Source: Eubacteriales bacterium (GTDB taxonomy: Bacteria; Bacillota; Clostridia; Oscillospirales; QAKW01). From it: 64,000 bases of DNA. The DNA lies in contig JAZQDW010000067.1 of assembly GCA_045546995.1 (NCBI GenBank), forward strand, positions 1,864 to 65,863, read 5' to 3'. A model generated the notes under the pieces. The model was given only the letters and a program-made list of their open reading frames with translations, searched no databases and was not told the DNA's origin. Position 1 is the first letter of the stretch; every line of letters starts with the position of its first letter. Shown here one piece after another: positions 3,002-53,429 of the stretch. Position numbers and translations under genes: made by a program.

Positions 3002-3011
3002 AGTATTCACC

Positions 3012-3947: not shown

Positions 3948-4076
3948 GACAATTTCCTCCAAAATGTGATATTCTGTCCTAATTGTAAATAAAACGCGGA
4001 AGCAGTTCCATATATTTTTGTATAAAATATGGATTTTTCTATACAAATATAGTATAATGAAAGAGAGGTGAGCAGG

Positions 4077-4898: not shown

Positions 4899-4902
4899 CT
4901 CG

Positions 4903-5670: not shown

Positions 5671-5728
5671 TTGAGTAATTCCCCCTGAAAAAAGGCAGTC
5701 TTTTATAACAAAAGACTGCCTTTCTTAT

Positions 5729-6682
5729 TTATTTGAGCATACCGAGATAGGCAGCGCCGATGATGCCGGCGTCATTGCCCAGAGTTGCCGTACGCAATTG
5801 GGTACGCTTTGCAAAGTTGCGGGCAAAATCGTTTTTATCCAAAAATGCCTCGATAGGATCGGTCAGCACCTTACCCTGACCGCAAATACCACCGCCGATG
5901 GACAGGATATCCGGCTGGAAGATATTGATCAGGTCGGTAATACCTTCGGCAATATAGGTGATATACCGATTGACCACCGCCTTGGCAGTGGAATCACCGT
6001 CGTGCATGGCGTCGAATACCATTTTGCCGTCTACGTTGTCAATGTTACCGTTGCACATCAGCCACAGCTTACTGCCCTCGTCACTCTTCATGGCCTTTTT
6101 GGCCTGACGAATCAGCGCGGAAGCGGAAGCATAAGCCTCCCAACAGCCGTGTCTGCCACAGGAACACTTCTCGCCGCCCTCACGAATGGCGATATGGCCC
6201 AGTTCGGCGCCGGCATAGTTACAGCCGACCAGCATTCTGTTATCCATAATCACGCCGCCACCGACACCGGTACCCAGTGTGATCATTACAAAGCTTTCCG
6301 CATCCTTACCGGAACCGGCCAGATACTCACCGTATGCAGCCGCATTGGCATCGTTGCCCACAAAACAATCGATACCCAACTGCTCTTTGATCATTGCAGC
6401 CACCGGAACATCGAAAAAGTCCAGATTAAAGGCCTGCACAACAATACCCTCTTTGGAATTGATGGCACCGGGAGAACCAACGCCCACACCGTCAACCTGA
6501 TCGGCGGTGATGCCTGCGTCTTCCATCGCCATTTTGGCGGCCTTAACCATATCAGCCACGATCTCCTCCGCAGGGCGGGGACAATTGGTCTTAACCTGAC
6601 CGCGGCCGATGATATTATAGTTTTCATCTACGACACCAACGGCAATGTTGGTACCGCCAAGATCAATACCTATTTTATACAT
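5729..6682 (-). CDS. glcK: ROK family glucokinase
   Basis: MYKIGIDLGGTNIAVGVV N-terminus and ROK zinc motif CSCGRHGCWEAYAS. Confidence 0.85.
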   Translation of the reverse strand: MYKIGIDLGGTNIAVGVVDENYNIIGRGQVKTNCPRPAEEIVADMVKAAKMAMEDAGITADQVDGVGVGSPGAINSKEGIVVQAFNLDFFDVPVAAMIKEQLGIDCFVGNDANAAAYGEYLAGSGKDAESFVMITLGTGVGGGVIMDNRMLVGCNYAGAELGHIAIREGGEKCSCGRHGCWEAYASASALIRQAKKAMKSDEGSKLWLMCNGNIDNVDGKMVFDAMHDGDSTAKAVVNRYITYIAEGITDLINIFQPDILSIGGGICGQGKVLTDPIEAFLDKNDFARNFAKRTQLRTATLGNDAGIIGAAYLGMLK

Positions 6683-26954: not shown

Positions 26955-28010
26955 ATGCATACATTTCTCGCCGCCAACACGGCAAACGGCTTTTACAGTC
27001 TGTTTGACGAGTTGTGCAGGCAGACAGACCATAATATATTGCTGATCAAAGGAGGGCCGGGTACCGGCAAAAGTACCCTGATGCGTACCATCGCTGACGC
27101 CGCCGAGCAGAAAGGGTATCGGGTGGAGCGCATTCACTGCTCCTCCGACCATAACTCGCTGGACGGTGTGGTGGTGACGGAAAAACGGCTGATCCTGTTG
27201 GACGCCACCCCACCCCACTGCGTAGATCCGAAATATCCCGGAGCAGTGGAGCAAATCCTGCCGCTGGGAGAATATTGGGATCGAAGCAAGTTGATCCCCC
27301 ACCGTCGAAAAATCATCCGACTGACGGAAGAGATCCATCACTTGTTTACCCGCATTTATCGGTTATTACACGGCGTGGGAACGTTGCAACAATACAGCGA
27401 CGGTTTACTGGAGCCGACGTTTGATACACTGCGGGGCGAAAAAGCCGTACAGAAGATCCTGTCCCGACAAGCGGCCACCGATCAACATCGAACGGCCACC
27501 GTCACGAAACGCTTTCTTTCCGCCATTACCGCAGAGGGGCACGTTTTGTTCGAGGATGCCTTTGCAAATTGCCGCAACGTTGTGATGATCGAGGACAGTT
27601 TTGACGACGGACATCGGCTGACTGCCCTGTTTGATGCACGATTGCTCGCCTTAGGGTATGACCGGACGGTGTTTTGTGATCCGTTGTTACCGCAAAGGAT
27701 CGACCACATTTACGTCCCTGCGCTGGATCTGGGCATTCTGCGGCAAAACAGCCGCCTGCAATGGAAACAACCCCTTTCGGTCGAGCGTACCATTCATATG
27801 CGACAGCTGAGCGATCACGAACAACTCTCCGAAATCAAAAACAAACTGCAATTTGCCAAAAAACTGTGCCGAAGTATCTATGATGAGGTAGCAGAGTTGA
27901 TGGCAAGCGAAAAAGCTTTACACGATGAATTAGAACAATGTTATATAGAGGCAATGGACTTTGACGCCTTACAAGAGAAAGCGGATGAATTGCGGTCGAC
28001 GTTGCTGTAA
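26955..28010 (+). CDS. P-loop ATPase, function unknown
   Basis: Walker A GGPGTGKST. No further assignment. Confidence 0.6.
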   Translation: MHTFLAANTANGFYSLFDELCRQTDHNILLIKGGPGTGKSTLMRTIADAAEQKGYRVERIHCSSDHNSLDGVVVTEKRLILLDATPPHCVDPKYPGAVEQILPLGEYWDRSKLIPHRRKIIRLTEEIHHLFTRIYRLLHGVGTLQQYSDGLLEPTFDTLRGEKAVQKILSRQAATDQHRTATVTKRFLSAITAEGHVLFEDAFANCRNVVMIEDSFDDGHRLTALFDARLLALGYDRTVFCDPLLPQRIDHIYVPALDLGILRQNSRLQWKQPLSVERTIHMRQLSDHEQLSEIKNKLQFAKKLCRSIYDEVAELMASEKALHDELEQCYIEAMDFDALQEKADELRSTLL

Positions 28011-32709: not shown

Positions 32710-32743
32710 GCGCAAGGGGGCTGTAGCCACCCTTGCGCTTTTT
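32710..32743 (+). terminator. intrinsic terminator between the leader ORF and the rhs gene
   Basis: GCGCAAGGG...CCCTTGCGC stem with inner GGCT/AGCC extension, then T5. The rhs ATG lies 35 nt downstream with no promoter recognised in between. Confidence 0.7.
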
Positions 32744-32777: not shown

Positions 32778-35700
32778 ATGAAAACAAAGTTATGGCTACG
32801 CAGTATTTCTTGGCTTGTTTGTTTACTGCTGATCACTCAATGCTGTACTTTTGCGGTTTCTGCCGAAACGGAAACTGTAGCCACTGAAGCAACAGAAGAG
32901 CCTGTGCAGATCGAAGGCGAGTTGATCCAAAAGCGCACGGCGAATGAAAAATACTTTATGCGCAGTGACCAAAGTATTCTGGCGGCGGTTTATCCGAATG
33001 CCGTTCATTATAAGGACGTGGATGGCACCTGGAAAGAGATCGACAACCGCTTAACTGAATCCACCGATGGTGCAGAGACGGTATTTTCCAACACCGTCAA
33101 TGCGCTGAACGTCAAATTTGCCAAAAAAGCAAAAGATGGTAAGTTGGTGAAGCTTCATTATGAAGATACCAAAATTGCTTGGTACTTAAATGGCGCCGCC
33201 AAAACCACCGCCACCCCATTGGAAAACGACTGGCCGGAGCAAACGGATCCTACGGCAGTGATTGGCAATCAATCCGCCGTCTTATATGAAAATATTTTAC
33301 CGAAAGTAGATCTGGAATATCTGCTCATCGGTGATGAACTGAAGGAAAATATTGTCTTAAAAGACCGCACGGCCATAGGTACCTACACCTTTACCTATGA
33401 AACGGGCGCGCTTACAATGACCCTTTCCGACAATATGATCACTCTTTGGCAAGGGGATAAGGCGGTTCTGTTTTTGAACGCGCCTCTGATGACCGATGCC
33501 GCCGGCAACACAAGTGATGCCATTACGCTTTCTTTGCGGCCGGAAAAGGAAAACGAAAATAATCACGTTTATACGGTTTCCGTCACCCCCGATGCCGAAT
33601 GGCTGAACGCCGCCAGGCGTGTATATCCCGTCAAGGTGGATCCTTCCCTGACCACCGAGCAGACCTATGAAAACATAATGGACACCTACGTCAGCAAGTT
33701 GGCTCCCGGGTCTAATTATACAGATGAGATCACGTTCCGTGTTGGCAAGGATGCATCCACCAATGATGTCTATCGGGCGTTTCTAAAGTTTGATCTTCCC
33801 ACGGATATCGGCGAAAGCGATCGTGTGGTAAATGCTACCCTAAATCTGTATCCCGATCCACGATTGACCCATCTGGATACCCTGAATGCCATGGCATCAC
33901 AGCGTCCCGTGTTGCAGGCGCACGCCGTCCAAGAGACGTGGGCTACAAACGAGATCACGTGGGGCAATCAACCCGAGACGGACAGCGATATGCTGGATTA
34001 TGAGATCGTTGAGGCCAAAAACGGCTCAGAAGATGCCACCCGTTGGTACGGATGGAATATTACCTCCTTGGTGGATGATTGGTATACCTCCGGTGTCAAT
34101 AACGGTGTGATGCTGAAACTGGATAATGAATCCGGTTATACCGGCAATACGGTTGCCAAATTCTGTTCTTCGGAATTTAATTTGCTGGAAGATGATAATT
34201 CAATCGTATTCCCCTTGGTCAGTATTACCTATCTTAATATGCTGGGTCTGGAGGACTATTGGACGTATCATTCTTTGGATGCCGGCGTGGGCGGTACTGC
34301 CTACGTCAATGATTTTACCGGTGGCCTGACGATCGTGACTCCTGTGGCATCGGTAGACAGCGCTCACACGCCGCTGAACGTGTCGCTGGTCTATTCTCCC
34401 GGCTCTAACGATGCAAGCATCAATGCGCTGAACGTGGGCAATCATTTTATGCTCAATCTGCAGTGCTACGTAAAGCCGGTCACGATCGGCGACGTTCAAA
34501 AATATAAATACGTCGATGGGGACGGCACCACCCACTATTTTGCACAAAAAAATAATAAATGGACGGATGAAAGCGGCCAGGACCTGACCCTATCAATGGG
34601 CGACGGATATTATACCATACGGGATAAAAAAGATAATCTCCTGCGCTTTTATGCAGATACCGGCCGCCTGTGTAATATTAAAGACAGCGTGGGCAATAAT
34701 ACCCAATTGTATTATACGGTGGTGAACGGAAAATACTATCTCTCCTCCGTCACCAACGGTACCCACACCATCACCTTTACCCGTGACAGTAACAACCGTT
34801 TGTCGCGCGTGTATTATCCCGATGCCGACGGAACCAACGATCAGCGCTTTGCACAGATCACCTATACGGCATCTAAAAATGGCATTTACCATTTGACACA
34901 ATATATTCAGCAGGGCACCACATTGACCCCGACCCACATCGTCAGCTTCCCCTGTGATCATAACGTGGTCAGTCGGATCATCAGTTGTCCGTATGATGCA
35001 GATCGGGCAGATGGTGCCGCATTAAGCGGAACGGCATTGATCTTCGGTTATACCAACGAAGGGAATCTGTCTGAGCACCGTCGACGTATCACCTCTTATA
35101 AGATGGTGCCTTACGTAAACGGCACCCTGCAATCCAATCAACCGGAATACCATTATGCGGTCACTTATCATCGCAATGCTACGCGTTTTACCTCTCAAAT
35201 TGCAGGAGATAGCGGTGTATTTAGTAATGAACTCTACACCTTTGATGCATTGGGCAGAACACGCTCGGCCCAGGATCAGGACGGCTATGCCACCTATCAG
35301 GAGCACGGCATCAGCGGTGGCGCCAAGAATAAGGTCACCTTTACCTCCGATACACGCCGCCACGTTGCAAATCTTCTGAAAAATCACAGCTTTGAAAAGG
35401 GCGATGCCACCACCCTGACCCAATGGGCAAAAATCGGCAACAGCGGCGATAATGCAGCCATTAAAGGGACTGCCGATAACGAGCCGGTCTTTGTCGGCAC
35501 AAAGGCAATGAAGGTATATAAAAATGATGCCGCCCAAACCGTCAATTCCTCGGTGCGGCAGGCCATTACGCTGACAAAGGGCAAAAAATATACCCTCTCC
35601 GCCTATGTCTACACCGATTTGACCACCCTTTCCACTTCCGGCTATACCGGCGCATTTTTGTGCGTAGAAACGGCGGATTATTCACCCCAGAGCTATTGTC

Positions 35701-38700
35701 ACAATATTATCAGTGACGGCGCTTGGTCACGCCATTTTGTCACCATCGACCTGACCGGGAACGTGGATATGGCAACCAGTGAAACGTTTTACGTTTATCT
35801 TGGTATTGAGCGAGCAAAGGGTGCGGTATATTTTGACGGTGTCCAACTGGAAGAGGGCGGCTCGGTCAATTCCTATAACCTGATCGAAAACGCCGGCTTT
35901 GAGGACAGCACGGACACCGCCTGGATCGGTACCGAGCTGCAAAGCGGCGATGGCCGCACCACCGATTCCTCCCGTGTGGGATACTTCTATAAAATGGTCG
36001 GCAACAGTAAAACGTCCAAAAAGCTGGCCCGGACCGTCACCGTCAGCGGTAAACAGGGCGATGGCATAACGGCAGGTGCCTTTATTCGCAACTTCGGCCT
36101 GCCCAATAAGGATACCTATCATAACGGCACCAAACAGGATTGTGCCATCACGTTGGAAATTTGCCATTCCGACGGTTCCTCCCAATTTGTCACCCAAAGT
36201 GCGGAAAATGAGGTCGATCATTGGCAATACGTTTGCCTGGGAGCTGTTGCCGAGGAGAATTATACACAGCTTAAACTGTATCTAAAGTTCATTTATAACG
36301 GCAATACCGCATATTTTGATGACGTCGGTCTGTATCGGGACACCTTCGGGCAAAGCCTGACCTACGATGAAAAGGGCAACGTTACCACCGTGGTAGATAT
36401 GGCCAATAATACCAAAAACATCATCACCGACGGTAATAACGATATGACCTCCTATACGGACGGCGAGGGCAACGAGTATACCTTCGAGTATGACGGTGGA
36501 AACAGTGCGACGAAAAAGCATCTGCTGACCAAGGTGACCGATCCTTTGGACGATCAAACGGCATATACGTATGATGCAAAGGGCAACGTTACCAAGACCA
36601 CCTTAACGGATGCGGCGGGTAATATGACGATGTCCGCCTCCACCGCCTATACGGCAGATGGACATTACGTTGCAAGTCAGACGGATGCGGCAGGTATGTC
36701 CATTCGTTATAATCGTTCAACCGTGGACGGACGGGTAAATGACGTTCGTGCACCGTTGCCCGACGGTTATGATCTTAAAACTAGTTATACCTACGATCCG
36801 CTTACCAAGGAGACGGTGGGCGTTGAAGTGGCAACCGATATTCCCTACGGTGGCGAACACCGTTCTTTGCCCGCCAACGTAACCTATGCTTATGACCGTG
36901 GCAATTTGACGGATATCGTCCGTAAGGCTGACACAACCAAGCAGATGGGCTATCATATGACCTACGATAACGTTGGCAAACGCACCGGCGTGTATTGGTC
37001 GGGCAAAACCAACACCCAATCGCTGTTGCAATCCGCCACTTATAAAGATTTTGGTGCAGTGGATACCGTTACCTACGGCAATGGCCAAACCTTGTCTTAT
37101 ACCTACAACAACGCAGGCTTGGTCACTGAAAAGGCATATAATAATACGCCGGTGGTAAAATACGACTACAATGCAAACTATGCCCTCGGTGCCGCCGCCT
37201 ATTATCGCCCGGTCAGCAACACCTGGGAGCGTACCAACTACTTTTATGACCTGGCAGGCCGGATCTCCGAAACTAAGGATACCCGCGGTCTCAGCACCGG
37301 CGCCTATTCGTATGATAAAAACAATCGTCTGCTCTCCTATCGGTCGGTCTTGGAGGATGCCCACGTAGATCTTGGGTATACTACGCGCTATACCTATTTG
37401 GCCGATAACACGCTCAAATCCATCTGTCTGGATCCCGATGGCGGATATGAAAGCGGTACGATGCGGTACGGCTATGATGGGATCGGGCGACTGTATATCA
37501 AGAGATTATCGCTGGATAGTATGGACAATTCTTTCAGAATAGACTATACTTATAAGCAGAATGAGGACGGTTCCCGTACCACCCGACCTTCCACTACCTC
37601 TTACAAGGGTATATACAATGGTACCACCGTGGAGGGTTCGTACTACAGCACCTATTATGACGACGGCAAAATTGCCTCTCATCGGGTCATCGATAACAAC
37701 GGTACAAAAACCACGGCATTTGAATATGATGCATTGGGGCAACTTACTTCCACCGATGACGGCACCGACGAATACACCTATTCCTACGATGCCGGTGGCA
37801 ACCTCACCGCAAAAACCTTCACCACTTCGGCAGATGACAGCGATTATACTGCCACCTATACCTACGACAGCAACTTTTCCGACCTGTTGACCGGATATGC
37901 CAAAACCGAGGACGGTGTCACCACCACCCGCACCTATAATTATACTGCGAGCAATGGTACCAAATTTGTCAATCCCGTTTCCATTACCGAAACCAACGGC
38001 ACCACCAGCAGTGTGATGCAGCTTGGTTGGCGGCAGGGCCGGACGTTGGAAAGCATTACCACCGATGCCGGTACCGTTCGCTATGAGTACAATGAAAACG
38101 GTCAGCGTATTTTGCGACAACTGGTCAACGGCGCCAAACGGGAATACTATTACAACGGCACGCAGTTGGAGTATATCAAGATCCTTACGGCGGCGGGTAA
38201 CCTGACAAGCACGATGCGTTATATTTATAATGCAAACGGTCAGGCGGAATATATTCTGTACATTACCAAAGGCAATGCAAAAACTCCCGCGGCCTACAAC
38301 CTGTACTACATTCTGCGAGATAACACGGGCGTGATCCAAAAGCTCATCAAGGTGCGCGCGGCAAGTTCTACCTCTGTCACCCCCACCTTGTCCGTGGCAG
38401 TGGAATATAAGTACGACCCCTACGGTAAGCTTCTGTCTATCACCAAGGCCAGCGGCGAGAGCGTTGGCACCTACAACCCCCTCGTTTATAAGGACTATAT
38501 CTGGGACAGCGAGACTGATTGGTACTACTGCAACAGCCGTTATTACGATCCCGAAACGGGCAGATGGATCAATGCGGATGCATATTTAACTACGGAACAA
38601 AGTATTACCGATACCAATATGTTTTTGTATTGCGGAAATAATCCTGTTCTTTTTGAAGATGCTAGTGGAAATAGGTACGCTGTTTCCGCTTCGCAAATAG

Positions 38701-39188
38701 AAGACGAAACATGGGAGGAGAGAGGCTATTCATGTGATCATATGAATAAGCAAAGTGGTCGTGGGCTCAATCCATCCCACAGAGAAGAACTTCCGACAGG
38801 AGAACGACTCATATATTATACAGTTGGAAACAGCAAGGTTGTTACACCGAAATCTTTAGGAAAAAATACAATTATTATCAAGGATGTGAGAAATAATAGC
38901 CTTGACCCAGGAAATGCAAATATGCAAATTGTAGATTCGTACAAATACACTCGTCGTCAAAATGAATTAAGGATTAATATTCTTAATAGTATGCTACATT
39001 ATTGCCAAAGAGTTCCAAATTCCGGTAATGGATGGATTAGAAGTGTTCCATCGATGCTGTGGGAGTGGGATTTGCACAATTTGGCACACGACTTGTATCT
39101 TAAGCGATCAAGTAGCGGAAGCGTTGATCTTGATAATAAATCAGAAGATTGGGGGATCATTCAACATATATGGTACGCAATTTCTTGA
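32778..39188 (+). CDS. Rhs/YD-repeat polymorphic toxin, Sec-signal, WapA-like (2136 aa)
   Basis: Signal peptide MKTKLWLRSISWLVCLLLITQCCTFAVSA. DNRLRE-like and two CBM-like regions. Many YD repeats (YxYDxxGN/R). Core end ...RYYDPETGRWINAD...LYCGNNPVLFEDASG, followed by a 170-aa unassigned AT-rich tip. Confidence 0.9.
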   Translation: MKTKLWLRSISWLVCLLLITQCCTFAVSAETETVATEATEEPVQIEGELIQKRTANEKYFMRSDQSILAAVYPNAVHYKDVDGTWKEIDNRLTESTDGAETVFSNTVNALNVKFAKKAKDGKLVKLHYEDTKIAWYLNGAAKTTATPLENDWPEQTDPTAVIGNQSAVLYENILPKVDLEYLLIGDELKENIVLKDRTAIGTYTFTYETGALTMTLSDNMITLWQGDKAVLFLNAPLMTDAAGNTSDAITLSLRPEKENENNHVYTVSVTPDAEWLNAARRVYPVKVDPSLTTEQTYENIMDTYVSKLAPGSNYTDEITFRVGKDASTNDVYRAFLKFDLPTDIGESDRVVNATLNLYPDPRLTHLDTLNAMASQRPVLQAHAVQETWATNEITWGNQPETDSDMLDYEIVEAKNGSEDATRWYGWNITSLVDDWYTSGVNNGVMLKLDNESGYTGNTVAKFCSSEFNLLEDDNSIVFPLVSITYLNMLGLEDYWTYHSLDAGVGGTAYVNDFTGGLTIVTPVASVDSAHTPLNVSLVYSPGSNDASINALNVGNHFMLNLQCYVKPVTIGDVQKYKYVDGDGTTHYFAQKNNKWTDESGQDLTLSMGDGYYTIRDKKDNLLRFYADTGRLCNIKDSVGNNTQLYYTVVNGKYYLSSVTNGTHTITFTRDSNNRLSRVYYPDADGTNDQRFAQITYTASKNGIYHLTQYIQQGTTLTPTHIVSFPCDHNVVSRIISCPYDADRADGAALSGTALIFGYTNEGNLSEHRRRITSYKMVPYVNGTLQSNQPEYHYAVTYHRNATRFTSQIAGDSGVFSNELYTFDALGRTRSAQDQDGYATYQEHGISGGAKNKVTFTSDTRRHVANLLKNHSFEKGDATTLTQWAKIGNSGDNAAIKGTADNEPVFVGTKAMKVYKNDAAQTVNSSVRQAITLTKGKKYTLSAYVYTDLTTLSTSGYTGAFLCVETADYSPQSYCHNIISDGAWSRHFVTIDLTGNVDMATSETFYVYLGIERAKGAVYFDGVQLEEGGSVNSYNLIENAGFEDSTDTAWIGTELQSGDGRTTDSSRVGYFYKMVGNSKTSKKLARTVTVSGKQGDGITAGAFIRNFGLPNKDTYHNGTKQDCAITLEICHSDGSSQFVTQSAENEVDHWQYVCLGAVAEENYTQLKLYLKFIYNGNTAYFDDVGLYRDTFGQSLTYDEKGNVTTVVDMANNTKNIITDGNNDMTSYTDGEGNEYTFEYDGGNSATKKHLLTKVTDPLDDQTAYTYDAKGNVTKTTLTDAAGNMTMSASTAYTADGHYVASQTDAAGMSIRYNRSTVDGRVNDVRAPLPDGYDLKTSYTYDPLTKETVGVEVATDIPYGGEHRSLPANVTYAYDRGNLTDIVRKADTTKQMGYHMTYDNVGKRTGVYWSGKTNTQSLLQSATYKDFGAVDTVTYGNGQTLSYTYNNAGLVTEKAYNNTPVVKYDYNANYALGAAAYYRPVSNTWERTNYFYDLAGRISETKDTRGLSTGAYSYDKNNRLLSYRSVLEDAHVDLGYTTRYTYLADNTLKSICLDPDGGYESGTMRYGYDGIGRLYIKRLSLDSMDNSFRIDYTYKQNEDGSRTTRPSTTSYKGIYNGTTVEGSYYSTYYDDGKIASHRVIDNNGTKTTAFEYDALGQLTSTDDGTDEYTYSYDAGGNLTAKTFTTSADDSDYTATYTYDSNFSDLLTGYAKTEDGVTTTRTYNYTASNGTKFVNPVSITETNGTTSSVMQLGWRQGRTLESITTDAGTVRYEYNENGQRILRQLVNGAKREYYYNGTQLEYIKILTAAGNLTSTMRYIYNANGQAEYILYITKGNAKTPAAYNLYYILRDNTGVIQKLIKVRAASSTSVTPTLSVAVEYKYDPYGKLLSITKASGESVGTYNPLVYKDYIWDSETDWYYCNSRYYDPETGRWINADAYLTTEQSITDTNMFLYCGNNPVLFEDASGNRYAVSASQIEDETWEERGYSCDHMNKQSGRGLNPSHREELPTGERLIYYTVGNSKVVTPKSLGKNTIIIKDVRNNSLDPGNANMQIVDSYKYTRRQNELRINILNSMLHYCQRVPNSGNGWIRSVPSMLWEWDLHNLAHDLYLKRSSSGSVDLDNKSEDWGIIQHIWYAIS

Positions 39189-39994
39189 AAACCGCGTTTT
39201 CGGCGGTCAACATTATTTTGTATATAGTACTGATGCTTCCATTGATAGCATTTCCGATCCTTTTGTTCTTTCCCTATATATTTGAAGCAAACCTGTACTT
39301 TTCAACCATCTATTACTATCTGCTATCAGGACAGATCGAACTCTTTTTGCTTTTGGTTATTTTACTGCTGTTCTTTTTTATAAAAATCATTCGTCGGGAA
39401 AAAGTTTATTATTTATTCTCATCGCTGTTGCTGATAGCAAATTGCATTTTTGACGTTTTGACTTGGAACAAACCATTGCACGCGGTTGGAATTATCGTCA
39501 AACTGTTGATTGCGATCTCATTTTTTGTTGAAGGATGGAGGGCGCGCGGAGATTATTTCTCAAAGCACAGGAAAAACTTGCGTTTTTCTGTTTGTTGGGG
39601 TAGTGTGTTGTTTTTTGCCGGCTTTTTGCAATATATGTTGCTGAAATTTGAGCAAGGTCCCATTCTCATTTTTGCGGTCGCCATCTTATTTGTTGTCGGA
39701 CAAGCAATTTGGTTCATCTGTCAGCACATGTCCGCAAGGGATGTTGGTTACATTTGGCTTGGCTCGACATTTGTATGGGGGCTCCTTTCTTCTTGGTTAT
39801 CGTTGCTGCTGTATAAGCCGTTTCCATATTGGTTTGATGTTTCCGAAGATTATATGAATGAAAAATTTTGGCCGTTTTTTGTTTTCCAAATCCTTCATTT
39901 GGTAACAATGGGCATTGTGTGGTGCATCAAGGCAAGAGGCGGTTCTAAGAAAACAGAAAGAAATAACACAGGGGACGATTCTCTTGTCTCCTGA
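39170..39994 (+). CDS. polytopic membrane protein, putative cognate immunity protein
   Basis: Overlaps the rhs stop by 19 nt. AT-rich like the toxin tip. About 8 hydrophobic segments. Start choice uncertain (TTG 39149, ATG 39170 or ATG 39233). Confidence 0.55.
   Translation: MVRNFLKTAFSAVNIILYIVLMLPLIAFPILLFFPYIFEANLYFSTIYYYLLSGQIELFLLLVILLLFFFIKIIRREKVYYLFSSLLLIANCIFDVLTWNKPLHAVGIIVKLLIAISFFVEGWRARGDYFSKHRKNLRFSVCWGSVLFFAGFLQYMLLKFEQGPILIFAVAILFVVGQAIWFICQHMSARDVGYIWLGSTFVWGLLSSWLSLLLYKPFPYWFDVSEDYMNEKFWPFFVFQILHLVTMGIVWCIKARGGSKKTERNNTGDDSLVS
39967..39991 (+). repeat. REP-like element (degenerate core GGGGACGATTCT, mixed arms)
   Basis: cacaGGGGACGATTCTcttgtctcc. Supplies the last codons and the stop of the immunity gene. 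Confidence 0.7.
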
Positions 39995-40052
39995 CCTGTT
40001 GACCGGCTATGCTAAAACCGAGGGCGGTGTCACCCCCACCTTGTCCGTGGCA
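39993..40052 (+). pseudogene. orphan rhs fragment A
   Basis: Matches rhs 37881..37922 joined to 38382..38399 at a shared GTCACC, equivalent to an in-frame 459-bp deletion. Ends at a REP-like element. Confidence 0.8.
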
Positions 40053-40063
40053 AATTGCAAGGG

Positions 40064-40088
40064 AACACAGGGGACGGTTCTGTGTGTT
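40064..40088 (+). repeat. REP-like element, stem version 2 (ACACAG/CTGTGT)
   Basis: aacacagGGGACGGTTCTgtgtgtt. Confidence 0.8.
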
Positions 40089-40089
40089 G

Positions 40090-40249
40090 ACGGGCGTGAT
40101 CCAAAAGCTCATCAAGGTGCGGGCGGCAAGCTCTACCTCGGTCACCCCCACCTTGTCCGTGGCGGTGGAATATAAGTACGACCCCTACGGTAAGCTTCTG
40201 TCTATCACCAAGGCCAGCGGCGAGAGTGTGGGCACCTACAACCCCCTCG
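40090..40249 (+). pseudogene. orphan rhs fragment B
   Basis: 160 bp matching rhs 38325..38484 with 6 mismatches by hand alignment. Homology stops exactly at the next REP-like element. Confidence 0.85.
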
Positions 40250-40281
40250 GGGGGGACAAGGGGACGGTTCTCTTGTCCCCC
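40249..40281 (+). repeat. REP-like element, stem version 1 (GGGGGACAAG/CTTGTCCCCC)
   Basis: gggggggacaagGGGACGGTTCTcttgtccccc. Confidence 0.85.
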
Positions 40282-40330
40282 GGCTCCTTAACAAACGGAA
40301 ATACAACAAATAGCTTTGGTGTAAAATTGC

Positions 40331-40368
40331 AACACAGGGGACCAACACAGGGGACGGTTCTATGTGTT
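40331..40368 (+). repeat. REP-like element, version 2, with a partial 5' duplication
   Basis: aacacaggggacc then aacacagGGGACGGTTCTatgtgtt. The 3' flank runs into the -35 of the RAYT-like gene. Confidence 0.8.
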
Positions 40369-40395
40369 GACGATTTTAGTTTGCTATGTTACAAT
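40367..40395 (+). promoter_or_regulatory. candidate promoter of the RAYT-like gene 1
   Basis: TTGACG, 17-nt spacer, TACAAT, with TGt extended -10. The -35 overlaps the end of the REP-like element. Confidence 0.55.
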
Positions 40396-40412
40396 CAAAT
40401 TGGTGATGCGAT

Positions 40413-41159
40413 ATGCCAAGACAGGCGAGACAGAAAAGCGAAAGCAGAATCTACCATGTAATGCTTCGCGGAATCAATCAACAACAAATTTTTGAGGATT
40501 CAGAAGATTATGATAAGTTCCTCAATATTATGAAAGACTGTAAGGCAATATGCGAATTTAAGCTATTTGCATATTGCCTTATGAGAAATCATATTCATTT
40601 ACTTATTAAAGAGTGCAAAGAGCCGTTGGAACAAATATTTAAACGAATCTGCGGACGATTTGTATACTGGTATAATATCAAGTACCGACGTACAGGCCAC
40701 TTGTTTCAGGATCGTTTTAAAAGCGAGCCGGTGGATTCGGAGAAGTATTTCTTCACCGTACTGCGCTATATCCACCAAAACCCTACCAAGGCAGGTATTT
40801 GTAAGTGTGTTGAGGACTATGCCTACAGCAGTTATTCGGAATATACTGGTATAAGCAGACTTGTTGACACAGAATATGTTTGGGCACTGACTACGCTTGA
40901 AGATTTTGTTGGCCTTAATCATGAAACAGTTGACACGCCCTGTTTGGATGTTTCCGAGAAAGTCATTGCGCGCGTAACGGACGAACAAGCAAGAGCAATC
41001 ATCAAAAAGATCGCGCGGTGTGACAACGTTTCGGATTTCCAAAACTTAGATCTTGTGACCAGGGATAAATGTTTGAAAAAGTTTAGAGACAAAGGAATTT
41101 CAATCAGACAGCTAAGCAGATTAACGGGCATCAGTTTTAGTATTGTGAGAAAATTCTAA
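40413..41159 (+). CDS. RAYT-type (IS200-like Y1/HUH) transposase-like protein with C-terminal HTH
   Basis: HUH motif NHIHLLI. Tyr motif LRYIHQNP. GHLFQDRFKS. C-terminal GISIRQLSRLTGIS helix-turn-helix. Confidence 0.8.
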   Translation: MPRQARQKSESRIYHVMLRGINQQQIFEDSEDYDKFLNIMKDCKAICEFKLFAYCLMRNHIHLLIKECKEPLEQIFKRICGRFVYWYNIKYRRTGHLFQDRFKSEPVDSEKYFFTVLRYIHQNPTKAGICKCVEDYAYSSYSEYTGISRLVDTEYVWALTTLEDFVGLNHETVDTPCLDVSEKVIARVTDEQARAIIKKIARCDNVSDFQNLDLVTRDKCLKKFRDKGISIRQLSRLTGISFSIVRKF

Positions 41160-41160
41160 T

Positions 41161-41216
41161 CACACACAGAACCGTCCCCTGTGTTCTATCACACACAGAA
41201 CCGTCCCCTGTGTTCT
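41161..41216 (-). repeat. two tandem REP-like elements (version 2) inverted relative to the upstream copies
   Basis: cacacacAGAACCGTCCCCtgtgttct repeated with a 29-bp period, starting 2 nt after the RAYT stop. Confidence 0.85.
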
Positions 41217-41399: not shown

Positions 41400-41461
41400 G
41401 GGACAGTTCTTTGCCTCGGAAAAACTTAAACAGGGGGACAAGGGGACGGTTTTCTTGTCTC
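41400..41461 (+). repeat. direct-repeat copy 1 (gggacagttctttgcctcggaaaaacttaaacaggg) fused to a version-1 REP-like element
   Basis: 36-nt block repeated at 42577..42612 with 1 mismatch. REP gggggacaagGGGACGGTTTTcttgtctc at 41433..41461. Confidence 0.75.
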
Positions 41462-41480: not shown

Positions 41481-42566
41481 ATGATAAAAAAACGAATGGT
41501 CTGCATATGTGCTATTATGTTGCTGTTGTTTTCTTCTTGTGGAAGCACAAATATAGTAGATCGTTTTGCCGAAACGGAACTGACAAAAGAAATCGCACAA
41601 ACCATTGTGCATTCTTTTAATTCTGCTCAGATTGATCAACCTTTTTCAACATCAGATGTTGTTCCCTATGAAATGGCATTTAAGTATTTTCGTTATTTTG
41701 GATTTTATAATGAAAAGGGTGAAATGCGCCCACAAGTGGTTTCATATCAAGATGGCTTGAAATACAAGGTGCCACGCAAAGTGGTGGATACGTATTTGAG
41801 TTCAAAGTTTAATACGACTCCAAGCGCCAAAAGCATTTCATGCTATGATGCACAGAGCGACTCTTATGTGATCGCACCCGTAGACAGTTATGCCGGAAAA
41901 ATAACGATTGATTCCATTGATAAGCTGGATAACAACCAATATCAAATCCACGCAACTGTGCAAGATGAACCGACAGAAACTCTTTTTTCTTTTGAGCAAA
42001 CGTTTACAATTGAGTATAACGGGTCATTTAAGTTTTTATCCTTTGAAGAAAAAGAGAAGGCATTTCAAGAGTTGACGGCAGAGGAACAAAAACTTTTATC
42101 GTATATTAATGATTATTATTTCTTTGATACACGTCAGTATTATGATGAAGATCACAAGATTCCTTATGACGTTGCTTTTAAGTGTTTTGCCATCTACGGT
42201 TTTTGGGATAACAATGGGGCTCTGCGCAAGGAATTAAAGCAGTATGCCACCGGAAATGAATACGAAGATCCATATAATATTCCTGCGAAAATAGTAGATG
42301 ACTTTGTCGCTTCAAGGTTTGACGTAGAGATAGATCGATCCAATATTGAAAATTACAATAAAGAAAGCGACTCATATCTCATTCTACCGAACGCTGCAGA
42401 TGGGCACGATTTTGCAGAATTGATAAGTTATGAACGTTCCGGAAACATCTATAGGATTATTGTAAATCAGCGGAATTGGTTAGATCCGAATTTGGTTGAA
42501 AAGCAAATGTTTCGTCTTGAAATAAATGACGAGAACTGCAAATATCTTGCTTTTACCAAGATTTGA
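41481..42566 (+). CDS. lipoprotein with internal two-fold duplication, function unknown (possible orphan immunity protein)
   Basis: Lipobox LLLFSSCGS. Two ~170-aa repeats (PYEMAFKYFRYFGFYNEKGEMR... and PYDVAFKCFAIYGFWDNNGALR...). AT-rich. Confidence 0.65.
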   Translation: MIKKRMVCICAIMLLLFSSCGSTNIVDRFAETELTKEIAQTIVHSFNSAQIDQPFSTSDVVPYEMAFKYFRYFGFYNEKGEMRPQVVSYQDGLKYKVPRKVVDTYLSSKFNTTPSAKSISCYDAQSDSYVIAPVDSYAGKITIDSIDKLDNNQYQIHATVQDEPTETLFSFEQTFTIEYNGSFKFLSFEEKEKAFQELTAEEQKLLSYINDYYFFDTRQYYDEDHKIPYDVAFKCFAIYGFWDNNGALRKELKQYATGNEYEDPYNIPAKIVDDFVASRFDVEIDRSNIENYNKESDSYLILPNAADGHDFAELISYERSGNIYRIIVNQRNWLDPNLVEKQMFRLEINDENCKYLAFTKI

Positions 42567-42572
42567 AAGAGA

Positions 42573-42639
42573 CAATGGGACAGTTCTTTGCCTCGGGAAA
42601 ACTTAAACAGGGCGGGAGATTTTCTCCCGCCCTGTTTTT
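42573..42639 (+). repeat. direct-repeat copy 2 plus terminator hairpin; left copy of the nested inverted repeat (partner 50712..50782)
   Basis: gggacagttctttgcctcgggaaaacttaaaCAGGGCGGGAGAttttTCTCCCGCCCTGttttt. The hairpin works as a bidirectional terminator for the lipoprotein and nitroreductase genes. Confidence 0.8.
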
Positions 42640-50711: not shown

Positions 50712-50782
50712 CAAAAACAGGGCGGGAGAAAATCTCCCGCCCCGTTTAAGTTTTTCTAAGTCAGAGAACCGTCCCCTGATTG
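50712..50782 (-). repeat. right copy of the nested inverted repeat (hairpin plus aaaacttaaac block plus REP-like core)
   Basis: Its reverse complement caatcaGGGGACGGTTCTctgacttagaaaaacttaaacggggcgggagattttctcccgccctgttttt aligns to 42573..42639. The 42-nt inner block has 2 mismatches. Confidence 0.8.
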
Positions 50783-51306
50783 CCCTTGATCAACTGTTGA
50801 ATTATAGTTTCCTCTTGTGATCCCATAGATAACTGCGTAATATCTTTTATACTAATATAACTCTTGCCGTCTTCGTTTCCATCAACATCAAATTGTTTTA
50901 TAACACAGATATCATGTAGTACAGAATCGACTTTACCAATAACATCCCATTCGCCACTGCTAAGCAATTCCAAAGATACAAGTTGTTTTTTATTTTGAGC
51001 AAAATTCAACAACGACATTAAAGCATTTTCTTGAAATTCTATATCAATCTCAGGCAAAGCTTTTGTTTGCATCAATTTCTGCATTCGTTGATTGTAACAA
51101 CTATCAAGTTCTATACGAAAAACATCTCCAACACTTTTGAGCATAATGCCATCATAATTTCCGTCCGGTAGCAGAAGATACATAACAAACCACTCTGCAT
51201 CTACATACAGCACTTTGCCAAATAAAAATTTGGAGGTGTTATACCCGTTTGTGTATACCGAAGCAAAAATGTTTTTATCACGAATCTCTTTTAAAGTAAT
51301 CAACAT
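50761..51306 (-). CDS. hypothetical cytoplasmic protein (181 aa), possible orphan immunity protein
   Basis: AAGGAGA SD 7 nt upstream. AT-rich. The last 7 codons and the stop lie in a REP-like element. Confidence 0.6.
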   Translation of the reverse strand: MLITLKEIRDKNIFASVYTNGYNTSKFLFGKVLYVDAEWFVMYLLLPDGNYDGIMLKSVGDVFRIELDSCYNQRMQKLMQTKALPEIDIEFQENALMSLLNFAQNKKQLVSLELLSSGEWDVIGKVDSVLHDICVIKQFDVDGNEDGKSYISIKDITQLSMGSQEETIIQQLIKGNQGTVL

Positions 51307-51340
51307 ATCTTATTCTCCTTATGTAGTAATAATTTTCTGC

Positions 51341-51400
51341 GCAAGGGACAAGGGAGGGACAAGAGGACAGAGGGACAAGGGGACGGTTCTCTTGTCCCCC
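51341..51400 (+). repeat. REP-like element (version 1) with an iterated GGGACAAG 5' arm
   Basis: gcaagggacaagggagggacaagaggacagagggacaagGGGACGGTTCTcttgtccccc. Confidence 0.8.
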
Positions 51401-51513
51401 TGGCCAAAATTACTTTACACGGTTAAGTTTATACAATATCCTTTTCCCCAAGTTCCTATCAAAAGTTTGGTATCATGATCATAAAACTCGGCAAAACAGC
51501 CGTGATCTATCTC

Positions 51514-51545
51514 GGGGAGACAAGGGGACGGTTCTCTTGTCTCCT
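51514..51545 (+). repeat. REP-like element (version 1)
   Basis: ggggagacaagGGGACGGTTCTcttgtctcc followed by T7. Lies 5 nt from the RAYT-like gene 2 stop. Confidence 0.85.
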
Positions 51546-51549
51546 TTTT

Positions 51550-52293
51550 TTAAATGTTTGATTCTACAATTTTCTTAGAAATACCAGTTAATCGAGCAAT
51601 TTGCCTTATCGATAAACCTTTGTTATGCAATTTGCTAATATAGAAATTACGTTTTTCTTTATCAAGTTTTTGAAAATCTGCTGCTGTCTTACATTTTGTG
51701 CTTTTCAATATAATCGTTTTTGCTTCAGCATCTGTCAAGCGATAATGTTCATCCATTTCTAAACAATTATCCGCATTTTCTTCTCTGTGATACTCAATAA
51801 ATTGATCCTTCGTAATCATCGAAAGAGCAAAACTTGTATCAACAAAAACCGGAGTTCCTAAATATTCTTTTATGCTACTGTTGGCGTATTCCTCTGCCTT
51901 TATGCATATCCCTGCCTTCACAGGATTCTGATGAATATACCGCAACACCGTGAGAAAATAGCTATCATCCTCAACAGGTTCACTCTTGAATCGATCCTGA
52001 AACAAATGTCCACAGCGGTGATATTTCCAGTTATACCAATAAACATAACTCCCGGCAATTCGTTTAAATATGGCGCTTAATTCTTCTGCGCCTTCTCGCA
52101 ACAGAATATGTATATGATTCCCCATCAAGCAATACGCATATACTGTATATCCGCATAATTCCTTATATAGGGCAAGTGTTTCAACAAATCTTTGACAATC
52201 TTCTCCATCCTCAAATATCTGTTGACGATTGATTCCTCTCAATATTATGTGGTATATTCCACTATCGCTCTTTTTTCGTGCTTGACGTGGCAT
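51550..52293 (-). CDS. RAYT-type (IS200-like Y1/HUH) transposase-like protein with C-terminal HTH, diverged paralog
   Basis: NHIHILL, LRYIHQNP, GHLFQDRFKS, GLSIRQIARLTGIS. N-terminal domain about 64% identical to the 40413..41159 product by hand alignment, C-terminal part lower. Confidence 0.8.
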   Translation of the reverse strand: MPRQARKKSDSGIYHIILRGINRQQIFEDGEDCQRFVETLALYKELCGYTVYAYCLMGNHIHILLREGAEELSAIFKRIAGSYVYWYNWKYHRCGHLFQDRFKSEPVEDDSYFLTVLRYIHQNPVKAGICIKAEEYANSSIKEYLGTPVFVDTSFALSMITKDQFIEYHREENADNCLEMDEHYRLTDAEAKTIILKSTKCKTAADFQKLDKEKRNFYISKLHNKGLSIRQIARLTGISKKIVESNI

Positions 52294-52310
52294 AACTATC
52301 ACCCAATTTG

Positions 52311-52339
52311 ATAATACATCATCATCTATTTTTTGTCAA
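52311..52339 (-). promoter_or_regulatory. candidate promoter of the RAYT-like gene 2
   Basis: On the minus strand: TTGACA, 17-nt spacer, TATTAT. The -35 directly follows a REP hairpin plus T5. Confidence 0.55.
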
Positions 52340-52345
52340 GAAAAA

Positions 52346-52435
52346 GGGGACAAGAGAACCGTCCCCTTGTCTCCCAGAGAACCGTCCCCTTGTCTCCCGA
52401 GAAAAAGGGGACAAGAGAACCGTCCCCTTGTCTCC
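52346..52435 (-). repeat. three REP-like elements (version 1) in inverted orientation
   Basis: Complement cores AGAACCGTCCCC at 52355, 52378 and 52416. On the minus strand two of them read as hairpin plus T5. Confidence 0.85.
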
Positions 52436-52662
52436 TAAATATAATAGTCCCCTTGCGTTGTTTTGACAATCAATCGGGAATCTGTTGTGAATTTAGCAAC
52501 GCTCGGTTGCACCATATCGGAGAAACGCGAAACGTGCTCTCCCGTTTTTTTGTCATATAAATTCGCGCTGCCGCCGCAACAACAAAAATATTTCTCATTA
52601 TGCGCGATGTGATATGATTTCTTGAAAGTAAATAGAATCTCTTTTTTATCAATCACTTTCAT
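52435..52662 (-). CDS. 75-aa ORF, probably a truncated gene remnant
   Basis: AAGGAGG upstream (a GTG at 52656 is better spaced). The ORF ends exactly at the REP cluster boundary. No motif recognised. Confidence 0.35.
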   Translation of the reverse strand: MKVIDKKEILFTFKKSYHIAHNEKYFCCCGGSANLYDKKTGEHVSRFSDMVQPSVAKFTTDSRLIVKTTQGDYYI

Positions 52663-52711
52663 TCCCTCCTTACCATAATCCGCCCATTTGTATATCCCAT
52701 TTTACAAATCA

Positions 52712-52723
52712 TGGGACGGTTCC
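52712..52723 (+). repeat. degenerate REP-like core
   Basis: tGGGACGGTTCC followed by ctgattg (compare 50777..50783). Confidence 0.5.
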
Positions 52724-52737
52724 CTGATTGACTCCTG

Positions 52738-53079
52738 CTATGTCTTTTCGTTTTGACTTGACCATCCGCATTGATCACAACAAATCACATTGTTTCGCAT
52801 GGTGACAGTACCAAATAAAATGCGCGTCGTTCCCAAAGTAACACGTTCCTTTTGTGGGTCAGCCAAATGTTTGTGCCATACTTTATGCGTTTTGGCACCG
52901 CAATTCGGACAAACTTTAAATCGACGTTCAAAAAGTATATGTTGAACAAAGATCGTAATTGCAATCATCACAAATAAAACTCCAGCCGCAATGATGGATG
53001 CTTTAAGTCCGAAAACTTGTTTAATAATGCCCAAAATCACGAACATAAATAATGGAAATAGTAGTTTGTTGTTCTTCAT
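52738..53079 (-). CDS. small membrane protein with C-terminal zinc ribbon (113 aa)
   Basis: Two hydrophobic helices then CPNCG...CDQCG. AT-rich. Confidence 0.55.
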   Translation of the reverse strand: MKNNKLLFPLFMFVILGIIKQVFGLKASIIAAGVLFVMIAITIFVQHILFERRFKVCPNCGAKTHKVWHKHLADPQKERVTLGTTRILFGTVTMRNNVICCDQCGWSSQNEKT

Positions 53080-53088
53080 TGGAAACTA

Positions 53089-53388
53089 TCACTCCTCAGA
53101 TTCTATGTTCTTCTTTTGCCAGCGTATAAGTGCATAACTCATAGAAAGAAAGCAGAAATATGTTGTAATCATGAATACGATGGGCATCTCCGGAAATCGG
53201 TGATTTAAAATTGCATGTACGATTATTGCGGGAATCATATGTAAAAAAGTATAACCAATAGATCCCCACCATAGTTTAAAACTTTTATGGGGATAATATA
53301 TATAATTGTACAGCCAAACAAAAAGACTAAAAATATGAATAATTGGTATCCACATAATTTTCTTTTGCGTACTAATCGAAATTTTCAT
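53089..53388 (-). CDS. small polytopic membrane protein (99 aa)
   Basis: ATG 53388 after GAGGAGAAAAG. The track N-extension is a translated REP element. Confidence 0.55.
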   Translation of the reverse strand: MKISISTQKKIMWIPIIHIFSLFVWLYNYIYYPHKSFKLWWGSIGYTFLHMIPAIIVHAILNHRFPEMPIVFMITTYFCFLSMSYALIRWQKKNIESEE

Positions 53389-53402
53389 TTCTTTTCTCCT
53401 CA

Positions 53403-53429
53403 GAGACAAGGGGACGGTTCTCTTGTCCC
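53403..53429 (+). repeat. REP-like element (version 1) between the right leader and the first gene
   Basis: gagacaagGGGACGGTTCTcttgtccc. Confidence 0.85.

Follow-up and report, generated by a model that had tools for sequence, protein, structure and literature searches.

What does the C-terminal tip of an Rhs toxin act upon when the gene that follows it encodes a polytopic membrane protein? Rhs/WapA toxins are major weapons of gut Firmicutes, and to our knowledge few of their tips are of known activity, while nearly all of the known immunity proteins are soluble and cytoplasmic. The locus that raises the question lies within a 64,000-nucleotide stretch of contig JAZQDW010000067.1 from a Eubacteriales bacterium (assembly GCA_045546995.1, positions 1,864 to 65,863, forward strand), referred to here as the window, in which position 1 is the first nucleotide. 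It comprises a gene for an Rhs/YD-repeat polymorphic toxin (32778-39188, + strand), identified from its translation and from Pfam and NCBIfam profiles, together with the gene for a membrane protein, the partner, that overlaps its 3' end.

On balance, the evidence presented below tilts towards the toxin and immunity end of a Sec-exported, WapA-type Rhs system of a Clostridia bacterium from gut or rumen, in which a predicted enzymatic tip would act at the membrane or envelope and be neutralised within the membrane. The Rhs delivery scaffold is known; what is new is an undescribed tip domain family together with a characteristic membrane-embedded partner. A novel Rhs tip alone would be unsurprising to the specialist; a concrete, testable lead is provided by the pairing with polytopic proteins throughout the family, and by the existence of housekeeping and phage relatives.

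Pairing of tips with polytopic membrane proteins

The partner gene, which encodes the presumed immunity protein of 274 amino acids (aa), occupies positions 39170 to 39994 (+ strand). Its ATG codon at 39170 lies upstream of the end of the rhs stop codon at 39188, resulting in the 19-nt overlap (39170-39188) described in the original prediction. The accompanying claim of about eight transmembrane (TM) helices is upheld by hydropathy, modelled helices and charge pattern alike. Kyte-Doolittle windows and nine long helices in the AlphaFold2 (AF2) model indicate eight to nine membrane helices, and the best topology comprises eight TM helices with both termini inside, with 17 lysine and arginine residues inside and 4 outside, such that the positive-inside rule is obeyed. 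The AF2 model, with a predicted local distance difference test (pLDDT) score of 51, is too poor for a fold search. No internal duplication was found in the 8-TM protein, and no Pfam, NCBIfam, PHROG or PADLOC family was matched by it. That the gene is real is indicated by a homologue, P0002 (270 aa), which shares 35% identity with the partner over 97% of its length, is co-linear with it, and is encoded on seven metagenome contigs in the same position, directly after an Rhs C-terminus with a homologous tip and overlapping the stop codon. The tip linked to P0002 is 37% identical to the window tip, or 43% identical when the end of the core is included with the tip.

The pairing was examined across nine lineages of Rhs-borne or orphan tips, each at least 60% different from the window tip. 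These are the window itself (partner of 274 aa), L001-L007 (270 aa), L009 (159 aa), L010 (141 aa), L011 (147 aa), L015/L016/L019/L021 (162-163 aa as listed for L016 and L021, or ~142 aa from the likely ATG), L018/L022 (139-152 aa), L017 (155 aa) and L038-L041 (145-160 aa), the last being an orphan fragment outside any rhs locus. In these lineages the next open reading frame (ORF) overlaps or abuts the tip stop codon and encodes a protein of 139-274 aa with four to eight TM helices. The sole departure is L019, where the reading frame of the partner is interrupted; L015 is truncated by the end of its contig. Decay of the tip, to 88 residues in L021 and 22 in L022, has left the membrane ORF intact, in the manner of orphan immunity genes. 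Similarity between partners of different lineages was detected neither by BLASTP nor by hhalign (probability of 0.3 for the 4-TM group against the 8-TM pair), and 10 partner proteins returned no meaningful Pfam or otherwise annotated family. What is conserved across the lineages is the kind of protein, not its sequence.

The evidence for an immunity function is positional and comparative, and consists of the stop-codon overlap, the co-variation of partner with tip, and the retention of the partner at orphan loci. Judged from these sequence comparisons, the pair probably represents a genuine toxin/immunity cassette with a new family of tip and a membrane-embedded immunity protein.

The tip domain and its family

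The tip consists of 172 aa plus a stop codon (38670-39188, + strand; coding 38670-39185, stop 39186-39188). Residues 1-33 are a disordered, low-confidence linker that carries an RY...R..SC motif common to the closest relatives, while residues ~37-172 are modelled by AF2 as an alpha/beta domain of four strands (37-87), helices at 95-114 and 126-141, a short strand at 152-155 and a C-terminal helix. The mean pLDDT of the model is 79, with blocks of residues within 81-160 averaging 86-96. The tip is hydrophilic, having a highest 19-residue Kyte-Doolittle mean of 0.31, a grand average of hydropathy (GRAVY) of -0.76 and no GxxxG motif.

Since a word-indexed homology search with the tip only returned nothing, an exhaustive HMMER (phmmer) scan of 1.84 billion cluster representatives, clustered at 50% identity, was required. 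This placed residues ~37-165 of the tip in a family: 111 representatives were recovered (E<=1e-3), with alignments covering tip residues ~40-170, and a profile derived from the 111 proteins picks up further members with E-values down to 1e-40. In hhalign comparisons the tip matched a standalone subgroup with a probability of 99.0 (E 5e-18) and a separate Rhs-fused subgroup with a probability of 99.3 (E 4e-20). Given the number of representatives, the matches to two independent subgroups and the confident core of the AF2 model, the tip is a member of a real but unannotated alpha/beta domain family. The family has the short motifs DxR, SY, EWxxHN and VDLDNxDE, set within a consensus that begins D-x-[IV]-x-D-x-R ... 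[ND]-P-N-M-x-I-x-x-S-Y-x-I ... E-I-L ... Y and continues ... P-S-x-W-x-R ... S-M-x-x-E-W-x-x-H-N ... R-T-x-D-V-D-L-D-N-x-D-E. Across 97 sequences, S90, R124, E132, W133 and H136 (tip numbering) are invariant, and D72, Y111, W122, N137 and D153 nearly so.

The original prediction had left the tip unassigned, with no recognisable nuclease, deaminase or ADP-ribosyltransferase (ART) motif, and this description remains accurate with respect to annotated libraries, although an unannotated family can now be added to it. Searched at E<=0.1, the Pfam, NCBIfam, PHROGs and PADLOC libraries gave no match to the tip, no motif or profile of those enzyme classes was found in it, and no family recurred among the 97 members in Pfam (E<=5) or NCBIfam (E<=1). 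A TipC-immunity match to member P0012 in NCBIfam (E 4.5e-4, below cut-off) was confined to 1 of the 97 and was attributed to chance. Searches of PDB sequences with two family profiles gave nothing at E<=10, and a search with P0012 gave just chance matches to Rhs cores and BamB. With the tip model, the best Foldseek match in the PDB had an E-value of 1.3, and TelC did not appear among the matches. Known toxin families with a soluble immunity partner were also looked for, and none was matched with confidence. By inspection, the HNH/beta-beta-alpha-Me, PD-(D/E)xK, ART (R-S-E), LAS/M15, SGNH and BECR folds were each rejected because the required residues are not conserved, or because their order or secondary structure does not fit. 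The sole significant Foldseek match in BFVD was an uncharacterised 114-aa protein of a crAss-like virus (E 3.7e-4). Below significance, the PDB and BFVD matches repeatedly include DHH-type phosphoesterases (NrnA, exopolyphosphatase, family II pyrophosphatase, RecJ, and phage proteins labelled exopolyphosphatase or DHH phosphohydrolase), which are recorded as a lead towards a phosphoesterase-type activity that is not relied upon as evidence. A scan of genome contigs with the tip and its closest relative returned no locus, and tblastn of plasmids with three queries returned nothing.

A rough sort of the members places ~30 at the C-terminus of Rhs/YD proteins, immediately after the ...Y-C-x-N-N-P...D-x-x-G end of the core (for example P0005, 2222 aa; P0010, 2104 aa; P0083, 2122 aa). 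Another ~40-50 are standalone proteins of ~160 aa with an N-terminal signal anchor or lipobox, ~10 are standalone proteins without a signal peptide but with a basic amphipathic C-terminal tail, and the remainder are fragments. The Rhs-fused members derive from gut and rumen Clostridia, and the loci recovered from genomes are those of Faecousia and Acutalibacteraceae metagenome-assembled genomes (MAGs; Oscillospirales). Beyond residue 1964 of the Rhs protein, identity to other tips of the family is ~30-40%. The neighbours of the standalone genes vary, and include genes for NUDIX, acyltransferase, PEMT and metallo-beta-lactamase (MBL)-fold proteins, a metal permease with a Fur-type regulator, transketolase and rpoB; no immunity-like partner was seen beside standalone members at the loci examined. 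The occurrence of such members in housekeeping contexts without a partner indicates that the domain is not intrinsically a toxin, and Rhs systems appear, from this distribution, to have recruited it.

At three loci, representing two subfamilies, standalone exported members adjoin a NUDIX hydrolase gene (L012 1026-3053, L014 354-2379 and L013 134-1857). Genes for polytopic enzymes (Acyl_transf_3 or PEMT/ICMT) are also adjacent there, while other standalone members have different neighbours. The domain was found by tblastn in a crAss-like phage and in Lak megaphages, phages of groups that infect Bacteroidota hosts. The copy in crAss-like phage cr128_1 (MT774392.1; L042 3941-4261) encodes a clear family member of 106 aa, situated among early or regulatory genes, with the motifs SYKI, EWRAHN and RTGTVDLN and a hydrophobic C-terminal tail. 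In the Lak megaphages MK250020-28 the domain is encoded around 125-130 kb, the phage members being short, at about 106 aa.

The Rhs scaffold

The ORF as called mechanically begins at a TTG codon at 32733 and ends at 39188, but the likely start of rhs is the ATG at 32778, which gives a protein of 2136 aa. From its N-terminus this carries a signal peptide of the Sec type, then a DNRLRE domain and YD repeats, and finally the Rhs core and the tip. The signal peptide, MKTKLWLRSISWLVCLLLITQCCTFAVSA, was judged by reading the sequence and not with a dedicated predictor. The DNRLRE_dom profile of NCBIfam matches residues 302-468 (1.4e-25), Pfam RHS_repeat matches in four stretches (9.7e-15), and NCBIfam YD_repeat_2x is also matched (2.2e-14). 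The Rhs-associated core domain (38412-38669, + strand), which ends ...NMFLYCGNNPVLFEDASG, is matched by TIGR03696 (Rhs_assc_core; 7.4e-17, 61.6 bits against a cut-off of 32.5 bits) at residues 1879-1964 counted from ATG 32778, and the coverage of this profile places the terminus of the core, ...LYCGNNPVLFEDASG, at 38669. By analogy with other Rhs proteins, this is presumed to be the autoproteolytic boundary between shell and tip (PMC8636562, PMC12704120). The motif at this point is NNPVLFEDASG, compared with QDTAG in the closest relative and the usual DPxG; the aspartate and glycine are retained and the proline has been lost.

The neighbours of rhs are housekeeping genes (enolase, Clp-type protease, nitroreductase and patatin), and no type VI or type VII secretion system (T6SS, T7SS) genes are found among them. 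On its sequence features the gene is a member of the Rhs/YD polymorphic toxins of the WapA type, because all of the defining features that can be examined in sequence are present: YD/RHS repeats, a core directly before a variable tip, and a signal peptide with a surface-association domain and no T6SS or T7SS marker. At L001, the metagenome locus most closely related to this one, a second full-length rhs gene, likewise with signal-peptide, DNRLRE and YD regions (1623-5882), begins 187 nt past the membrane-partner gene, so that rhs genes stand in tandem.

Composition and borders of the cassette

An AT-rich, compositionally foreign cassette (38582-39967, + strand) runs from the final ~30 codons of the core through the tip and the partner gene, with a GC content of 0.38-0.39 as opposed to 0.50 in the rhs core. 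Its borders were defined as two-segment likelihood change-points with 2-lnL support ranges. At the left border, 38582 (support 38482-38616), GC content falls from 0.501 to 0.380, and at the right border, 39967 (support 39906-40022), it rises from 0.386 to 0.565. The left change-point lies ~90 nt ahead of the end of the core motif, and thus agrees with the original prediction of a drop near 38580, before the core ends at 38669.

A codon or amino-acid effect of a membrane protein rich in phenylalanine, leucine and isoleucine might account for the low GC content without a separate origin, and the coding strand of the partner gene is indeed strongly T-rich (AT skew of -0.25 to -0.39), as would be expected for TM proteins. 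However, the drop begins within rhs, ~590 nt before the partner starts, and at a GC of 0.385 the hydrophilic tip is as AT-rich as the membrane protein gene (GC 0.392), which argues that the shift is not an amino-acid effect. The change is also mostly one of the third codon position, with GC3 in the rhs frame falling across 38582 from 0.65-0.80 to 0.20-0.35, or from about 0.75 to about 0.25, and fragments of the rhs core are duplicated downstream. The change-point and GC3 analysis largely refutes the codon explanation, which retains next to no probability.

The duplicated fragments are two truncated remnants of the rhs core directly 3' of the partner gene, at 39993-40040 (+ strand; 92% identical to 37881-37928) and 40090-40249 (+ strand; 96% identical to 38325-38484). 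Copies of a REP-like palindrome (see below) lie between the two and truncate them, the second remnant ahead of the core end, and no tip follows either. They are probably leftovers of an earlier, displaced rhs 3' end. Together with the sharp compositional borders, the remnants suggest that the cassette was acquired separately from the rhs core, the incoming tip and immunity genes having displaced the older 3' end. With regard to the earlier suggestion of a swapped-in cassette, then, the change-points and the remnants are in evidence, while the swap itself is deduced from them: no closely related Rhs protein with a different tip was found, and comparison with three other full-length Rhs proteins, at 25-50% identity throughout, is too distant to reveal a recent exchange of tips.

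Site of action and alternative explanations

In the mechanism proposed here, the Rhs protein would be exported via Sec and displayed on the surface of the producer, as is WapA (PMC12704120), with the YD shell enclosing the tip until its release at the core-ending motif. Within a target cell the tip would function as an enzyme at the interface of the cytoplasmic membrane and envelope, without forming a pore, for which D72, S90, R124, E132, H136 and D153 are candidate active-site or metal-site residues. The polytopic partner would intercept the tip, or shield its substrate, within the membrane of the producer. Toxicity, substrate and mode of protection are all predictions in this scheme. An enzyme is suggested in preference to a pore because the tip is hydrophilic and globular, with invariant polar residues and neither a hydrophobic helix nor a glycine zipper, and extracytoplasmic activity is possible because many of the standalone homologues bear signal anchors or lipoboxes. 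The membrane or envelope target hinted at in the original prediction is now better founded, since it draws on the polytopic pairing in nine lineages and on the literature of membrane and lipoprotein immunity. Soluble cytoplasmic proteins make up nearly all of the immunity repertoire of polymorphic toxins, and those exceptions that are TM or secreted accompany toxins that act at the surface or membrane (PMC3482391). All immunity proteins of the Lipocone toxins, which act on lipid head groups in the envelope, are TM proteins or lipoproteins, one of them with a 4-TM core (PMC12419801), and the tips CT3 and CT7 of Streptococcus suis WapA are toxic only if sent to the periplasm (PMC12704120). Taken on its own, an envelope or membrane site of action for the tip is finely balanced, falling slightly on the doubtful side.

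Several observations weigh against the proposed mechanism. The fold searches returned no functional match, and the lone and phage members that have no signal peptide indicate that the domain is intrinsically neither extracytoplasmic nor toxic. The presence of EDASG at the core end in place of the usual DPxG renders cleavage uncertain. In addition, since the partners are unrelated in sequence, a protective mechanism common to them is an assumption, and the very short loops of the 4-TM partners are a poor fit to direct inhibition of a soluble enzyme. It is the relatives without signal peptides, the lack of a functional fold match and the short-loop partners that make a cytoplasmic target the main rival, in which case the partner would block passage of the tip across the membrane or capture it at the inner face. 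The signal-peptide-less lone genes (P0014, P0025) and the phage members suggest that folding, and presumably function, of the domain is possible in the cytoplasm; an entry-blocking role was proposed by Zhang et al. for the 2-TM proteins Imm-CdiI and Imm17 (PMC3482391); and the characterised B. subtilis WapA tips are cytoplasmic tRNases according to work cited in PMC12704120. However, a block to entry should track the route of import, and it is the conserved part of the toxin that sets this route, yet the partner diversifies with the tip and orphan tips retain a partner of their own. The absence of nuclease, deaminase and ART motifs or profile matches, and the export or lipid anchoring of the ~40-50 standalone homologues, also count against a cytoplasmic target, which is considered unlikely. 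Should the tip prove to be an enzyme of the cytoplasm, its membrane partners would exemplify immunity by exclusion, which is likewise poorly documented.

Two further explanations are less probable again. The pair may have no toxin or immunity function, with the tip serving as a benign binding or regulatory module and the membrane protein as an accessory for export, anchoring or maturation. This would accord with the standalone relatives that lie beside NUDIX, acyltransferase, transketolase and rpoB genes and have no immunity-like partner, and with the failure to recognise any toxin fold. Nevertheless, the domain occupies the exact position of an Rhs toxin, after the core-ending motif, the ~30 Rhs/YD-fused representatives span several tip lineages, and the partner overlaps the stop codon, varies with the tip and is kept by orphan fragments. 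With the foreign composition and the displaced rhs fragments, these are hallmarks of polymorphic toxin/immunity systems (PMC3482391), and a benign module is accordingly deemed improbable. Slightly more improbable still is a membrane-depolarising or pore-forming tip, comparable to TspA, EsxX, TelE, Tse5-CT or the ionophoric CdiA-CTs. These toxins have the same type of immunity protein, small multi-pass membrane proteins encoded directly downstream (PMC7456083, PMC12744356, PMC11630599), and many members have a final domain helix that is both aromatic and hydrophobic (DWGIIQHIWYAIS in the window tip; IWAKIAYAILSFLYF in the phage protein). The hydropathy values given above, by contrast, leave no hydrophobic helix, there is no glycine zipper, AF2 models a compact domain of sheet plus helices with high confidence, and the invariant positions hold polar residues (S, R, E, H, D, N), as in an enzyme.

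A broader and rather doubtful proposal can be offered, tentatively, for the domain with the DxR/SY/EWxxHN/VDLDNxDE motifs. It may be a new class of small enzyme whose substrate is embedded in the membrane or close to it, for instance a polyprenyl-linked precursor of the cell wall, or a lipid head group. The enzyme would be endogenous to Clostridia in exported or membrane-associated form, is carried by crAss-like and Lak phages, and would have been recruited repeatedly by Rhs systems as an envelope toxin, with rapidly evolving polytopic immunity proteins to neutralise it in the bilayer. If true, this would be a case of small enzymes following a toxin/immunity logic that has so far been documented mainly for pore-formers and Lipocones. 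The activity of the domain, whether it represents a new envelope-directed toxin activity in Gram-positives, and the means by which an integral membrane protein neutralises a soluble toxin are all amenable to testing, and the standalone and phage relatives would gain a first functional handle.

REP-like elements and neighbouring genes

The 3' edge of the cassette is marked by a degenerate copy of a repetitive extragenic palindromic (REP)-like element (39960-39993, + strand; core ACAGGGGACGATTCT), which overlaps the final ~10 codons of the partner gene. The palindrome, ACAGGGGACGGTTCT, with arms ACACAG/CTGTGT, occurs in 13 copies in the window compared with 0.08 expected. Beside the cassette lies a REPtron-like unit (40063-41215) composed of a transposase gene and inverted REP-like copies. 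The gene (40413-41159, + strand) encodes an IS200-like Y1, or REP-associated tyrosine, transposase (RAYT; Pfam Y1_Tnp 9.2e-14; NCBIfam REP_Tyr_transpos 3e-21, at 75.8 bits slightly under the 80-bit cut-off), and is surrounded by inverted copies at 40063-40087 and 40344-40367 on one side and 41162-41186 and 41191-41215 on the other, these four (I1-I4) being 96-100% complementary. A Y1 transposase, inverted palindrome copies and over-representation, the features of REP/RAYT (REPtron) systems, are thus all present in the window. The copies fall into two clusters, 39960-41215 and 50765-53421, each located round a Y1/REP-associated transposase gene (40413-41159, + strand; 51550-52302, - strand).

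In 8 of 11 tip-family loci, from various Oscillospirales MAGs, a REP-like element is situated at the 3' end of the partner gene or within ~45 nt of it. It overlaps the end of the gene in the window, in L001 (1409-1470) and in L017, and lies no more than ~45 nt downstream of the partner stop codon in L011, L016, L021, L022 and L038. Where it overlaps it encodes the last residues of the partner, namely the ..NTGD.. tail of the window protein and P0002, and likewise in L017. The element may serve as a marker of the cassette border or as a terminator, and might take part in cassette exchange.

Two other genes near the locus deserve mention. A 361-aa ORF (41481-42566, + strand; GC 0.37) has a lipoprotein-type signal (..LLLFSSCGS) and, by eye, an apparent internal two-fold repeat, and matched nothing in Pfam, NCBIfam or PHROG. 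It is bracketed by a 36-nt direct repeat (41400-41435 and 42577-42612; 97% identical), on account of which it may represent a further cassette insertion, such as an orphan lipoprotein resembling an immunity protein. Some 5 kb upstream of rhs, a 351-aa ORF (26955-28010, + strand) gave weak matches to nSTAND3 and other STAND-type NTPases, and is possibly a conflict or defence NTPase.

Comparison with known systems

The overall arrangement is that of B. subtilis WapA and S. suis WapA-CT1 (PMC12704120), in which a Sec signal, DNRLRE domain, YD/Rhs shell, core and variable tip are followed by an immunity gene with no T6SS or T7SS genes nearby. The S. suis tips CT3 and CT7, being toxic only outside the cytoplasm, provide a parallel to the proposed extracytoplasmic action of the present tip. 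However, those WapA tips that have been characterised act as nucleases or tRNases, or else resemble known folds, and are paired with soluble immunity proteins, whereas here the tip is unannotated and the partner has ~8 TM helices. Also unlike WapA, no LysM domain, sortase or SecF-like accessory gene was seen beside the rhs gene of the window.

As rare integral-membrane immunity proteins proposed to act at the membrane, Imm17 and Imm-CdiI (PMC3482391) resemble the partners described here, but they have two TM helices, and Imm17 a WxW...R signature, compared with four or ~8 TM helices and no Pfam family among the present partners. A likeness in gene order is found in the depolarising toxins (S. 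aureus TspA/TsaI and EsxX, CdiA-CT ionophores with CdiI, P. aeruginosa Tse5-CT, and pore-forming colicins with Cai or Cei), where a small multi-pass immunity protein is encoded directly after the toxin and immunity genes persist as orphans. Those toxins differ in being hydrophobic or glycine-zippered and inserting into the bilayer, while the present tip is a hydrophilic globule in which polar residues are conserved.

The Lipocone toxins (Min-Wnt, CapCone and prok-TelC; PMC12419801; TelC/TipC, PMC5555719, PMC6193138) share with this system soluble, non-pore tips, membrane or lipoprotein immunity and standalone versions with a signal peptide or lipobox, and the Lipocone family was itself recruited from endogenous envelope enzymes. 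The folds are different. The Lipocone is a four-helix cone in which a histidine on H2, a glutamate on H3 and an aspartate on H4 occupy separate helices, whereas in the AF2 model of the tip a sheet of four strands is accompanied by helices, E132 and H136 share a single helix, and D153 is placed on a strand. As far as these comparisons reach, the tip is not classed with the Lipocones, since the model lacks the cone core, TelC was not retrieved by Foldseek from the PDB and no Pfam family recurs among the members. As an analogy only, Lipocone/TelC nonetheless offers the best functional model for a tip that may act at the envelope.

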